Below, piece after piece: positions 3,200-47,319 of a DNA stretch of 64,000 nucleotides. This DNA comes from Octopus sinensis (Eukaryota). A program made the translations under genes and the position numbers. Location: contig NC_043000.1 of assembly GCF_006345805.1 (NCBI RefSeq), positions 129,766,001-129,830,000 of the forward strand, read 5' to 3'. The notes under the pieces are model-generated. The model was given only the letters and a program-made list of their open reading frames with translations, did no database searches and was not told the origin of the DNA. Numbering within the stretch: the stretch's first letter is position 1; each line of letters opens with the position of its first letter.

Positions 3200-5242
3200 T
3201 GGACCTAGTGTTTTGGACCTAGTGTTTAGTAACCACACTAACATTTTGGACCTAGTGTTTAGTAACACAACTAACACTATACATAACGTTACAGTGGAAA
3301 AAAACCTTCTTTCAGACCATGACATGGTTCTCTGTAACATGAAATTCCACCAGCTGAAAGCTAATCCTAGTGACCTTCCCAGCCCACCCATTTGACAACA
3401 TGGATCTCCATAATGCCAACTGGGATGCATCAGGAACGAGCTATCACATGTTGACTGGTCCTTTACACATACACACATCTCCACCAACCATAAAACATCT
3501 TGGCAGATCTTTGTAGACACCGTCACAGACATATGTGCAAACACACTCCCACCAAGACTGTGAACAAAAAGTGCAGAATCCCCCAAAACAGAAAAAACCA
3601 TTATCAGAAAAATAAAAAGAACAAACAAAAAAATTAACAAACTAAAGTACTGCCAACAGCAACACACACATTCGACGGCTATCGCACTGCTTGAATCTAA
3701 AAAATATAACCTCCAACAATGCATGAAGACCCTCATCAATAACAAAGATCAGCTGAGTAGAAGTGGGCCATTGAAAAAATCAAACTCACCCCAAAGTGTT
3801 CTTTTCCTTTGCGAGGAAACGCAGGTCACTGTCTCCACTGTAGGCCCTCTAATTGACGAAACTGGCACTCTCCAAGATAATGCCAAATCCATGGCCGAGA
3901 TACTGCAGAAACAATACTGCTCTGTTTTCAGCAATCCTGATATGGCCGATCTGGGCTGTATCAGCGATGTCAACCCCCAACACACTATATCGGACATAAC
4001 GTTTAGTGCCCCTGATGTCTTAGCGGCGATAAACGAAATAAAACACAATTCAGCAGTAGGCCCCGATAGGTTCCCTGCTTGTGTCCTGAAGGTGTGTCGA
4101 CACCAACTTGCATCTCCCCTTGCTAATCTGTGGAGAAACTCACTGGATGCTGGCTATATTCCAAAAACCTTCTGTCCCAGTCTGTTGTCCCAGTTTTCAA
4201 AAAGGGAAACAAGTCCCTTGCAGTGAATTACCGTCCGATCTCACTCACCTCTCATATCATCAAGGTATTTGAGAGGGTGGTGAGATCTCGAATAACCCAA
4301 TTTCTGGAAAGCAACAGACGGCTGATCTCCAACCAACATGGGTTCCGTAATGGAAGGGACTGCCTAACGCAGCTCCTGCATCACTTTGAGGACATTTTGA
4401 GAGCTTTGGGAGAGGGCTCCAACACCGATGTCATCTACCTTGATTTCAGTAAGGCCTTCGACAGGGTCGATCACAAGATCCTATTGAAAAAACTATCCAA
4501 CACTGGTGTCTCTGGAAAGTTACTGAAATGGATCAAGTGTTTCCTGACAGACAGATCTCAACATGTTGTAGTTGAAGGGGTGTAAATCAAGCAGCCAGCC
4601 AAAGTCAGTAGTGGCGTTCCGCAAGGCACTGTGCTGGGCCCACTTCTTTTCATCATTTACATTAATGACATTAATGACATCATAAAAGTATCATAAAAAG
4701 TTGAAGCACCTCAAAAGGCAATCACAAAAAAGATAGATGGCGACAGGCCTCGACTATTGGGGTCGACTAGAAAAGCTAAAACTCTATTCTCTCCCAACGT
4801 CGTCGTGAGCGCTACATCATCTGCATGATGTGGAAAATATTCCATCAGCATTGCCCAAATGATGTTGGCATCACCTTCAAGGTACATCCAAGGCTGGGGC
4901 CCCGTGCCATCCGCCCAAAACAAAAAAATCGCACTCTCATCTCATAACAACAATACGGCACAATTATTTCACCTCAATGGCCCCGCTCTCTTTAACATTA
5001 CACCAAAAACACATTTAAAACAGAAACTGACCCTATAGGGTTCAAGAAGTCTTTGGACAGATTCCTTCAAGAAATCCCGGATAACCCCCTACACCCGGAT
5101 ATGTCTCTGTAAACAATAACTCTCTACTTGAGTGGGCCATAGTGCCCAAATCCTGACTTGAAATACTTCACCAGGTGGTGCTATTAAGTTAGACATGGCC
5201 TGGGCCAATAATGGCCGAAACCTATCAAAGTATCAAAGTAAG
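3200..5242 (+). mobile_element. Degraded CR1/L2-group LINE (end of APE endonuclease, RT, C-terminal region, 3' tail), internally deleted, inserted in (TA)n
   Basis: LDLVFSN...LSDHDMV marks the APE end; RT motifs follow; C-terminal DYWGRLEKLKLYSLQRRRERYI; (TATCAAAG)n tail. Multiple stops and frameshifts. Confidence 0.92.
4030..4680 (+). pseudogene. Non-LTR reverse transcriptase domain fragment; catalytic (Y/F)ADD region missing
   Basis: [74 protein letters not shown]; the sequence then jumps to the C-terminal region at ~4700. Confidence 0.9.
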
Positions 5243-41814: not shown

Positions 41815-43039
41815 GCGTTTTTTATCCTTATTTCAATTTTCAAATTTAAGATAAACAAAGTTCATTTTAAATCTAAAATATATTCTCCTTAATTTTCTAC
41901 AATGATCTTACATCTGTCTGGTAGACTTGCAAAGCCCCTCTTCCAAAATTCAGTTGTCCGTCATGAAAAATACTCCTCCGGTAGTGTTCTGAATTCGTAT
42001 AGAGAATTCATAATTTTTCCGTTCAAATGTTTTGAAGACTGCGGAATAAATGATAATCAGATGGGGCAATGTCTGGCGAATACGGTGGTTGGGGCATAGT
42101 TTCTCATCCAAACTGCTCCAGCCTTTGGAATAGCATCCGCGCTTTATGTGGCTGAGCATTATACTGATGGAAGAACACCTTTCGTCTTGAAACCTGTTAT
42201 GTCGCATGTTCGGATGACCTCTGCTCAACTTTACTCTGACGTCTAGACTTCTCCCTCTATATCTACATATTGGGCTAGCCTACTTCATCGTCTGGGGGCG
42301 TTTCCCGATGGCACGCAGGTGTCGATGACTGGTTGAATGACCAATTCCAAGCTTCTTTGCTAGTTCCTCGACAGTTACGATGGGATTTTGTTCCGCCAGG
42401 GTTTGCAGCATGTCCTCGTCGAACTCTACAGATCTTCCAGGACGAGTTTAGTCTTCTACGCTGTAATTTCCGTCTCGGAATTTCTGGAGTTACTGTTGGA
42501 TCTGTCTTACGCTTATTGTCCGATCCCCATATATATTTCTTTACTACTCACAAGGGGCTAAACACAGAGGGGACAAACAAGGACAGACATAGGTATTAAG
42601 TCGATTACATCGATCCCAGTGCGTAACTGGTACTTAATTTATCGACCCCGAAAGGATGAAAGGCAAAGTCGACCTCGGCGGAATTTGAACTCAGAACGTA
42701 GCGGCAGACGAAATACGGCTACGCATTTCGCCCGGCGTGTTAACGTTTCTGCCAGCTCCCCATATACTGCATTAATATTCTTCGCACTTGCCGTTGCGTT
42801 ATTGCCTTTATTGAACTCGTAAAGCAAAATATGCCGAAAAGCTCCTTTGTCACTTCCATTGTAGCTTTGAAAAATTAACTGCTAAAATCGAACCGCACTC
42901 ATCAAAACTTGCAATAAAAATAAGCATAAAGTAAAATTACCAGCTGCTTTCATAGCAAACTGGCGACGGTAATTTGTCCCAGCCCCCTCTGATTTCTAAT
43001 TGAAGCAATTCAAAAAACCACATTATCTAAGGGATGACC

Positions 43040-43043
<4 letters not shown>
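41808..43043 (-). mobile_element. Decayed mariner (DD34D-type) transposon, internally deleted and interrupted by a SINE
   Basis: N-terminus HILLYEFNKGNNATASAKNINAVYG|DRTISVRQ...PGRSVEFDEDML...TVEELAKKLG; C-terminus FHQYNAQPH...PPYSPDIAPSDYHLFRSLQ; TIR rc TTGGGGTCATCCCTTAGATAATG at ~43021-43043. Confidence 0.88.
42534..42757 (-). mobile_element. SINE family A inserted in the mariner ORF
   Basis: 10-bp TSD TCCCCATATA at 42524-42533 and 42757-42766. Confidence 0.92.
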
Positions 43044-43086
<43 letters not shown>

Positions 43087-43150
43087 CATACTATATATAC
43101 ATACCTATATATATACATACAACATATAACATACATACATACATACATAT

Positions 43151-43183
<33 letters not shown>

Positions 43184-43741
43184 TATATATACCTATATAT
43201 ACATAAAGACATATATTATATATCCATACTACAATATATAGACATCAGACATACTATATATACATACATACATACCTATATACATACTACATATATATAT
43301 ACTACATATATATACATACATATACATACATACATATCATACATACTATACTACATACATATACCATACATACATACATATATACATACATATATATACT
43401 ACATATATATACATACATATATATACATATATACATATATACATATATACATATATATACATACATACATACATATATCTATATATCATATATACTACAT
43501 ACAGACATACATATATATATACATACATACATATACATACATATATATATACATCATATATATATATATACATATATACATACATACATACTATATATAC
43601 ATACATACTATATACATATACATACATATATATATATATATAATATATATATACATATACATACATATATACATACATACATATATATATACATATATAC
43701 ATATATATACATATACAACATATATCTATACATATACATAC

Positions 43742-43772
<31 letters not shown>

Positions 43773-44098
43773 CATACCTATAATATATATATACATATAT
43801 ATAAATAACTATAATACATACATATATATATATACATATAACATATATATATACAGATATACATACATAAACATACATACATATACATATACATACATAA
43901 TACAATATATATATACATATACATATATATATACATATACATATATAAAAAATACACATATATATATATACATACATATATATATATACATACATATAAT
44001 ATATAATATACATATATATAATATATACATATACATATATACATATACATACATATATATATATACATACATATATATATATACATATATAATATATA

Positions 44099-44705
44099 TA
44101 TCGCCATATTAATATGGCATTCTTATAGATATAAGAATAATCGCTGCCGCTGGTCAGCTCCATGAGGCCACCGCCTTAAGATAGCTATTGATACACGATC
44201 TGTATCCATTATAACCTTCGAACAATATATATAGATATTCTTATATCTATAAGAATGCCATATTAATATGGCGATAACAATTAATTTCCAGTAGACGCTG
44301 CCGTATTCTCTTTTATAGAGACTTAGTAATTTTAATATTTCTATTATTGAAAACAAGTGGATGTATTCCACTGAAACTAGGTAAATAGAAACCTTCGAAC
44401 AGAGACGTCAGTGGCGACACCTGCGGGGTCTGACTGCGCTACATTGACAAGGGGCAATACCCCGAAACGCGTCTGTAGCTGTCGGACTGGCAGTGTGAAG
44501 CGGCTGACCTCCCTTGTTCGAAGGTTATAATGGATACAGATCGTGTATCAATAGCTATCTTAAGGCGGTGGCCTCATGGAGCTGACCAGCGGCAGCGATT
44601 ATTCTTATATCTATAAGAATGCCATATTAATATGGCGATAACAATTAATTTCCAGTAAACGCTGCCGTATTCTCTTTTATAGAGACTTAGTAATTTTAAT
44701 ATTTC
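44099..44705 (+). mobile_element. Retrozyme-like / Penelope pseudo-LTR element: ~364-nt unit with ~105-bp terminal direct repeat and a 127-bp inverted 5' copy
   Basis: 44236-44341 is repeated at 44600-44705 (1 mismatch seen); 44099-44225 is the reverse complement of 44514-44640; central hammerhead; no ORF. Confidence 0.8.
44438..44479 (+). ncRNA. Type I hammerhead ribozyme, U3-A8 core variant, GUC cleavage site after 44473
   Basis: GCTACA TTGACAA GGGG-caata-CCCC GAA ACGCGT C TGTAGC: perfect 6-bp stem I, 4-bp stem II, palindromic stem III. Confidence 0.85.
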
Positions 44706-44802
44706 ATATATATATACATATATATATATATAAATACATATATATATATATATATATACATACATATATATATATATACATATATATATATACATACATA
44801 TA

Positions 44803-44843
<41 letters not shown>

Positions 44844-44900
44844 ACATACATATATATATACATACATATATATATACATACATATATATATACATACATA

Positions 44901-44940
<40 letters not shown>

Positions 44941-44985
44941 CATACATATATATATATACATACATATATATATATATACATATAC

Positions 44986-45018
<33 letters not shown>

Positions 45019-46088
45019 CATACTATATATATAATACATATATTATATATATACATACATACATATATATATAATTATATACATACATATATATATATAT
45101 ACATAAATATATATATACATACATACATATATAAATACATACATATATATATATATACATACATATATATATATATATACATACATATATATATACATAC
45201 ATACATATACATACATACATATACATACATATATATACATATATACATACATACATAATATATACGTACATACATACATACATAATATATACATAAATAT
45301 ATACATACATACATACATACATACATACATACATGTATGCATACATACATACATGCATACATGCATACATACATGCATGAATGCATACATACATACATAC
45401 ATATATACACGCACACTCAAACACACGCACGTTAACTCATACTAATATAAGGAGATGCAAATGAAAGATTTATTTAGATGAATATATTTGAATTCATATT
45501 AATAAAATTAATATGAATATAAATATATGTGATATGAATTCGACAAGTAGGAAGTTGCCGGAATCTATTCACGATCTTGTATACATACACAATTGGACAC
45601 ATCTGTAAAATTAAATAAATACTGGGATATGTATAAATATGTTTACGTATACAAACACATATGCACACAAATATACACACATATAACAACAAAAATTATT
45701 GATACTCATACATACACATACATAACAACAAAAATTAATAATACACATACACATATACACCATTCGTAGACATGTAATACAAATATAAGTTTACGCAGAA
45801 TTATGTATGCATGCGTGCATGTACACATACTTATATAAAGACAAGAAACACACAAAGACAGAAACAAGCGTAAATATTTCATAGAAAAGCAAATTGTGGA
45901 GTGCTACATAAGCTGAAGTATGCGAAAATGATACATTATATTCTGGTTAAAGGAAAGACAAATAACAAAAAGCTAGTATATAGGTTACAAAATAACGATT
46001 TATTTGGTGAGGCGGTTGAGATTTTAACATTTTAATGAAAAGATAGTGGTAAAAACTCAGTAATAAAATGAAGATTCAATACGTGTGC

Positions 46089-46114
46089 TTAACTATATGT
46101 TTATAAAATTTGGC

Positions 46115-46176
<62 letters not shown>

Positions 46177-46568
46177 ATCAGTAATTTTAGAGACAGAACC
46201 ACCTTCAACACAATCAACACAAAGATTTTATACCCGACCACTCCACAAAGTGTTAAAAATTAAATCATATACTAACTATATCTATTCTGAATTCTGTATT
46301 TTCCGTCTATAAGACTACATGTGTTTCATGAAAGTACGTCGGTATTGATTAGATACTTCCGTGAAACACGGAAAATACAGGATTCAGAATAGACTTAGTA
46401 TAAGATTTAATTTTTAACATTTTATGGAGTGGTCGGTTGATTGTGTTGAAGGTGATTCTGTCTCTAAAATTTCTTTTATATATACGAATTAAACATTGAG
46501 AGATGTTCATTTTAGTACATCTAATTTGAGTGTCTTTTTCCTGTGAACTCTGAAGTAATATTCCCTAA

Positions 46569-46622
<54 letters not shown>

Positions 46623-46657
46623 AAATTTAATAAACATAAAAGTGTAAATATAGTTAA
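46089..46657. repeat. Nested fold-back: outer IR, (TA)n, ~110-bp inner IR, central hairpin
   Basis: 46089-46119 vs 46615-46657; 46183-46306 vs 46368-46471; 46321-46336 vs 46354-46369. Confidence 0.85.
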
Positions 46658-47319
46658 TATTAGAAATAGATATATATACACAAACACACACATATGCATG
46701 TTTATATATAACTGAGTAAATATATTACAATAGTTTAGGGCTGGCCTGATTCTTGTGAGTGCAGCTGAGAGGATTGAAATTATGTTGAAACGCGTGCAAT
46801 GAATTGCAACTGTAAGTAAAAAGGCCAGCTTCGTTACGCAATGCTTTGCAAATTCTTTGCAAATTGGAAATTACGTTAAGGTACACGTTCGTGAGTAATC
46901 ATCACTCTAAACGACAGAAGATCCATTTTATACTATTCATATACATACATATATACTGAAGCCATCATTAGAACTGTAAAAATCTGTAAAACTTTCCAGA
47001 AGTTTATTATTTAAGTATATATGAGCATGTCTAGTTATGCAACTATATGCATGAAAAGACATGCATAAAACAAAACATACAAATCTGCACACATACATAT
47101 ATACATACATGCATACGTACATACCCTTTTGCTGATGTTGAAATTCCAATGATGGAGCCTTGGATCTATATTGGAAACCAGCTCTACCTCTATTGGTAAG
47201 AAATCTTGAAATAAAAACTGACCAATCACAAACACACACACGAACACACACGCATATATACTTACATAAATACATATATACATGCATACATATGTTGATT
47301 ATTCTGAAGGTATTTTAAC

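Follow-up and report, generated by a model that had tools for sequence, protein, structure and literature searches.

The closest described relatives of the repeat reported here are the metazoan non-LTR retrozymes, whose expression as circular RNAs has been shown (PMC7229834, Cervera and de la Pena 2020; 10.64898/2026.07.22.740005, Li, Clavereau and Pollet 2026). The 2020 study names Penelope-like elements as candidates for the return of retrozymes to DNA; the 2026 preprint bases its case on co-occurrence and on similarity to pLTRs, and only one of its nine dimers was cleaved. The insertions of endonuclease-bearing Penelope-like elements are described as having an inverted truncated copy, with a tail of 30–40 nt on one end (PMC8557442, Craig et al. 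2021). A purified Penelope-like protein, predicted to act as a dimer, starts reverse transcription at two internal sites, cuts both strands and uses AT-rich targets, and hammerhead cleavage is unnecessary for its insertion in vitro (PMC11167929, Frangieh et al. 2024). In Schistosoma elements, a covariant U3-A8 hammerhead core and a palindromic loop III have been described together with a dimer model, and circles have been proposed as templates for copies longer than one unit (PMC4209133). These and the later comparisons refer to portions of the cited sources.

The locus considered here lies in a window of 64,000 nucleotides of the Octopus sinensis genome (NC_043000.1, positions 129,766,001 to 129,830,000, forward strand), which is the whole stretch analysed. 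We place a probability of about 0.65 on the reading that its 364-nt unit is a dispersed non-coding hammerhead repeat, inserted into AT-rich DNA with a reverse transcriptase (RT) and endonuclease borrowed from a Penelope-like element, with a one-unit circular RNA as the likely template. Literature searches for hammerhead, retrozyme, Penelope and Neptune found no description from octopus or cephalopods, repeat libraries and the PMC7229834 supplement aside.

Results

The window element consists of two head-to-head arms, of 127 nt and 470 nt, with their 3' ends outward (Table 1). The forward arm has a period of 364 nt, and 44236–44341 recurs at 44600–44705 with 105 of 106 nt identical and one mismatch, in agreement with the period and the ~105-bp redundancy reported in the initial annotation; this 'terminal redundancy' is the forward arm running beyond one unit. 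Self-comparison of the window aligns 44099–44225 with 44514–44640 in inverted orientation at 100% identity over 127 nt. This arm had been overlooked, and the earlier description of a simple ~1.3-mer gives way to two arms that end at two fixed sites. In unit numbering (u1–u364 = 44236–44599), the inverted arm comprises u279–364 followed by u1–41. The unit contains no ORF of at least 120 aa other than TA-repeat frames. The window copy sits in a TA field, where a target duplication is unreadable. Elsewhere in the window, a broken LINE-type reverse transcriptase fragment lies at 3564–4585 (RVT_1, E = 1.9e-16).

Table 1. Coordinates of the two-armed element and its target fields in the window (u, unit position).
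Feature	Position	Strand	Description	Basis
Left (TA)n/(TACA)n target field	43043..44098	.		
Inverted arm	44099..44225	-	u279-364 + u1-41; stops near the 'short' 3' end (modal end u50)	
Filler, 10 nt, AT-rich	44226..44235	.	Where the two arms meet head to head	Sequence
Complete 364-nt non-coding unit, subfamily A	44236..44599	+	43% GC; ~64% paired as a circle	
Rod, a long interrupted helix extending hammerhead stem I	44390..44526	+	3 double changes in the rod helix	
Type I hammerhead motif	44438..44479	+	6-bp stem I, U3-A8 core, 4-bp stem II, palindromic stem/loop III (ACGCGT); predicted cut 44473/44474	Motif position and covariation
Start of second pass, u1-106	44600..44705	+	Stops near the 'long' 3' end (modal end u112)	
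Tail between the two end sites	44650-44705	+	Part of the second pass	
Right (TA)n/(TACA)n target field	44706..45409	.		

The hammerhead sits at the tip of a ~137-nt rod, and every helix named in the initial annotation lies where it had been placed. The rod arms pair 44390–44401 with 44515–44526, and stem I pairs 44438–44443 with 44474–44479; the core TTGACAA (44444–44450) is followed by stem II (44451–44463, 4 bp) and by GAAA-CGCG-TC (44464–44473). The core carries U3-A8 instead of C3-G8. The motif pattern matches once in the whole window, and the copy has a single hammerhead. Rfam models do not detect it, with no match for 44330–44620 at E <= 10; 53 Rfam hits within 42000–47000 were rejected as low-scoring matches to TA repeats.

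Several observations bear on the RNA fold. First, folding of the unit as a circle against shuffled controls, a check that had been suggested with the first description, gives a minimum free energy of -134.0 kcal/mol versus -88.3 +/- 5.1 for 100 dinucleotide shuffles (z = -8.9). The minus strand folds almost equally well (z = -8.6), and the strand is therefore fixed by the hammerhead only, not by the fold. Predicted pairing is 61–64% in five subfamilies folded as circles. Second, the U3-A8 core is intact in 65 of 73 full units, with N7 freely variable (C, T or A) across units, and loop III in the 65 intact cores reads CGCG in 40, CATG in 24 and CATA in one. Two copies pair through the 6-nt palindrome, which does not form a hairpin by itself; this fits the dimer model as set out in PMC4209133. 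Third, a structure folded from one subfamily-A copy was counted on 13 natural copies, and 94% of cells pair. Double changes occur at 9 of 110 pairs versus 0–2 in slid-partner controls, and cells with double changes number 33 versus 13.3 +/- 2.7 in shuffles, although the number of double-change pairs is itself unexceptional in the shuffle control (9 versus 7.2 +/- 1.3, reached by 68 of 500 shuffles). The stems covary and the loop-3 palindrome swaps between CGCG and CATG, which is apparent selection on RNA structure. Separately, L094:1535–2120 holds two small fold-back fragments that contain the hammerhead only, both stopping at the predicted cut position.

The repeat is a dispersed, recent, multi-copy family with at least five subfamilies. 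The 2.72-Gb genome contains 191 exact matches to the 29-nt hammerhead core and 2,150 to a 28-nt end motif, with none for the reversed controls. The best 42 matches, with 40 of 2,266 candidates scored, are 97–100% identical, in line with the recent origin proposed earlier. The 73 full units group into five clusters plus a singleton. Divergence among the five majority sequences is 4–15%, and copies of subfamily A, to which the window copy belongs, differ by ~2%. Tandem multimers, which the initial annotation had suggested looking for, range from 1 to ~8 units (~6 in L092, at least 8 in L181–L184), and most arms are shorter than two units. At the family level, head-to-tail arrays with two or more intact hammerheads are present at L019, L091–L093, L181–L184 and L191. 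The window copy has one hammerhead and is therefore predicted to be a product rather than a source of circles; monomer self-release is not expected from it. In L091:1080–2749, L092 and L093, runs of adjacent units have rare alleles in common, suggesting local amplification at the DNA level after insertion.

Arms stop at ~u50 (short) or ~u112 (long), ~62 nt apart, and their 5' truncation points are scattered. For subfamilies A and B, 80 loci were fetched and 16 dropped (15 duplicates and L094, which holds fragments only), leaving 64 non-redundant loci. Forty-three of these are two-armed: 40 are short+long, none has two ends alike, and three have one unclassifiable end. The 21 single arms comprise 12 short, 8 long and 1 other. 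In the end-motif sample of 30 loci, reduced to 20 by dropping 10 that overlapped or were locally duplicated, 11 of the 12 two-armed loci are short+long. Subfamily C (30 loci) yields 17 two-armed insertions, with 11 short+long, three long+long and three unclassifiable. Taken together, 62 of 65 classifiable two-armed insertions are short+long. A 'strict' pairing was rejected on account of the three long+long loci in subfamily C. In one long+long locus, L143:635–1857, the arms flank a duplicated TA spacer and begin at almost one position, and the locus may be a DNA-level palindrome.

Flanks are mostly TA repeats. Duplications of 8–14 bp are found at seven loci with unique flanks (L004, L011, L027, L029, L092, L098, L101), and five loci examined for duplications have none. 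The family thus shares with the published insertions of endonuclease-bearing Penelope-like elements an inverted 5'-truncated arm, an optional tail on one end and AT-microsatellite, (TA)n targets, and its two fixed ends match the two internal RT starts. Unlike those elements, the octopus unit has no ORF, and its tail is ~62 nt rather than 30–40 nt. Two fixed ends, one of each in most two-armed insertions, constitute the Penelope 'tail' signature and suggest a Penelope-type RT, as the initial annotation had surmised. That the unit is a non-autonomous, Penelope-mobilised element is highly probable.

Proposed mechanism and template

In the proposed mechanism, arrays with at least two hammerheads would be transcribed, and two hammerheads would pair through the 6-nt palindrome and cut. 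Released in this way, the 364-nt monomer would be circularised by ligation, and its lone hammerhead could then not form stem III. As the ends suggest, a Penelope-type RT-endonuclease, likely a dimer, would cut (TA)n DNA in staggered fashion, and cDNA would be primed from both strands at two fixed internal RNA sites ~62 nt apart. The product seen in the DNA has head-to-head arms with one short-site and one long-site end and scattered 5' truncation; it often exceeds one unit, with 8–14-bp duplications where the flank is unique. A fuller version, to which we give slightly less than even odds, is that such a dimer copies a single small ribozyme circle in trans. Synthesis would begin from both fixed internal starts simultaneously, with each strand of the cut target priming one of them, and could go more than one round; recognition would be by RNA shape, not by sequence in common with an autonomous element.

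Marker sites inform on the template. At six subfamily-A markers, the two arms of an insertion disagree in 6 of 114 comparisons versus 46.5 expected if arms were drawn independently, and passes disagree in 5 of 115 versus 44.3 expected; those of subfamilies B and C are uninformative, being for the most part rare sites. Five rare A alleles occur in every copy of their own locus, versus 140 singletons, and one of the five, at L019, occurs in all five passes of both arms (L095, with a misaligned junction, was excluded from the allele counts). Marker agreement and locus-wide rare alleles therefore indicate that a single template lineage gave rise to each insertion, although lineages that were active at different times would yield equal arm-to-arm marker agreement. 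Arms cross the cut site in 82 of 109 cases and exceed one unit in 46 of 109, in searches that favoured such arms, and there is no 5'-end pile-up at the cut site. Cleaved linear monomers were therefore rejected as the template.

An alternative is that the element is Penelope-mobilised from an uncleaved linear multimer transcribed from tandem arrays, with the hammerhead trimming transcripts or riding as a passenger, and with arrays growing by template jumps or unequal crossing-over. Arrays of ~3, 5, 6 and at least 8 units do exist, autonomous elements generate an identical two-armed layout from long RNAs, and uncleaved RNA is the main in vitro substrate reported for a Penelope-like protein in PMC11167929. 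The long arrays also offer some support: rare alleles are common to only some passes in L091, L092 and L093, a misfit to one circle that suggests local DNA duplication or a multimeric template in some arrays. Divergence between adjacent passes slightly exceeds that between the two arms, at 1.66% versus 1.40% in subfamily A and 2.92% versus 2.39% in subfamily C, suggesting that at least some arrays arose from multimeric templates or were duplicated later as DNA. However, most copies are shorter than two units and 5'-truncated, so multimers would need regenerating; hammerhead and palindrome are maintained by covariation; and passes of one locus agree at lineage markers. Templating by a linear multimer appears unlikely, at roughly one chance in four. 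A circle is the simplest account of the arm lengths and the conserved hammerhead, following proposals made in PMC4209133 and PMC7229834, and circular RNA is probably, by a modest degree, the main template. Four runs that may be RNA yield contigs over the unit, some of them spanning the cut site, with a control RT + GIY-YIG element covered in those runs at overlapping depths; such contigs cannot show circles, ends or level. A loose-end motif from these contigs has no genome match.

Candidate partner elements

Penelope-like elements of this genome were sought through GIY-YIG, with 150 of 5,029 candidates scored. A young family encodes a 479-aa ORF1 of no known family and a 781-aa RT + GIY-YIG ORF2, with copies 98–99% identical (L111:674–4374 plus the 3' end; L113–L115, L120, L226); older families are also present. 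The RT + GIY-YIG proteins encoded intact in the genome include one of 781 aa and one of 775 aa. By the cysteine linker described in the relevant part of PMC8557442, these families are putatively Neptune-like. Their 3' ends bear hammerhead motifs with a U3-A8 core and 4-nt palindromes. The motif of the young family has 518 exact genome matches and a stem I that looks weak, that of a sister family has 140 matches, and another RT + GIY-YIG family (L073, L125–L127, L162) has at its end a hammerhead-like motif of the U3-A8 type whose palindrome is GCGC. U3-A8 may thus be the usual core in Penelope-like elements of the octopus genome. In the young family, five of six distinct two-armed loci seen are short+long, and the sixth extends into ORF1 on one side; its tail is ~35 nt, versus ~62 nt in the unit.

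BLASTN finds no likeness of the unit to any RT + GIY-YIG element in 50 loci, bar one separate insertion. Within the same 150 of 5,029 scored candidates, the sequence common to both is limited to a 7-nt AT-rich end motif and the U3-A8 core. An RT + GIY-YIG ORF in register with the unit occurs in 0 of 94 loci and 0 of 30 end-motif loci. The initial annotation had raised the case that all copies are simply pLTR ends of an autonomous Penelope ORF; none is such an end in the 124 fetched loci. Penelope ORF remnants lie nearby in 5 of 94 loci; three of these, examined further, are separate neighbouring or nested insertions, and the other two (L006, L110) were judged by coordinates alone. None of the 30 end-motif loci has such remnants nearby. 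Candidate unit-plus-ORF arrangements at L128/L131, L156, L135 and L023 were rejected as neighbouring or nested independent insertions. At L164:2926–3420 (L023), a unit copy lies within a decayed RT + GIY-YIG ORF. The unit thus appears non-autonomous in all loci seen, with a candidate Penelope-type partner enzyme suggested by the insertion pattern.

A further explanation makes the unit a terminal repeat (pLTR) that has become detached from an unsampled autonomous Penelope-like element, with the copies as the truncated ends of that element. The U3-A8 hammerheads with 4-nt palindromes at the 3' ends of RT + GIY-YIG families favour this view, as do the small scored fraction of GIY-YIG candidates (150 of 5,029) and the derivation of retrozymes from pLTRs argued in the 2026 preprint. 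Against it, the sequence upstream of the unit is always further unit or unrelated flank, and the remnant counts and their separate insertions given above point the same way, rendering this origin improbable. A last reading is that recombination in TA fields spread a satellite or DNA-level repeat whose hammerhead-like motif is incidental. This would explain the head-to-tail arrays and some local duplication, but the end pattern, with its fixed 3' ends, 5' truncation at scattered points, target duplications and inversions, largely refutes it; RNA covariation also counts against it, and its probability is very small.

Discussion

The octopus unit resembles metazoan non-LTR retrozymes, as these are described in the sources cited, in being non-coding and arranged head-to-tail, within 150–450 nt, below 45% GC and without LTR or protein; it likewise has a type I hammerhead with a weak palindromic helix III, is highly paired, and shares its genome with Penelope-like elements. 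Its size is similar to that of the 350–390-bp mussel repeats. The retrozyme-like, non-coding character first proposed for it therefore holds, with 364 nt, 43% GC, a type I hammerhead and head-to-tail multimers. In contrast to those retrozymes, it has a U3-A8 core and places the hammerhead at the tip of a 137-nt rod; its copies are mostly dispersed two-armed insertions of less than two units, and two fixed 3' ends are absent from the retrozyme descriptions in the portions cited. Known from sequence alone, it would qualify by sequence features as a metazoan non-LTR retrozyme.

Similarities extend to other systems. Like the elements of PMC4209133, the octopus hammerhead combines U3-A8 with a palindromic loop III; unlike them, as far as that source is drawn on here, its stems I (6 bp, extended) and II (4 bp) are canonical, no extra base follows A9, and the motif is in a free-standing unit. 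Among Penelope-like elements, non-autonomous head-to-tail Chlamys derivatives provide a known parallel. According to the passages used, these generally share 3' ends with autonomous elements, whereas the octopus unit has no likeness to a sampled autonomous family. Overall, the unit is best classified as a putative non-autonomous, Penelope-mobilised retrozyme with predicted cleavage.

The return of animal retrozymes to DNA has so far been proposed, not shown. In the octopus family, the Penelope insertion signature can be read to the base. The predicted starts (~u50 and ~u112), the target preference and the young candidate enzymes that this genome encodes make the family testable in an existing in vitro system. 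If true, trans-copying of a circle by a dimer would turn the proposed partnership between retrozymes and Penelope-like elements into a defined, testable reaction.
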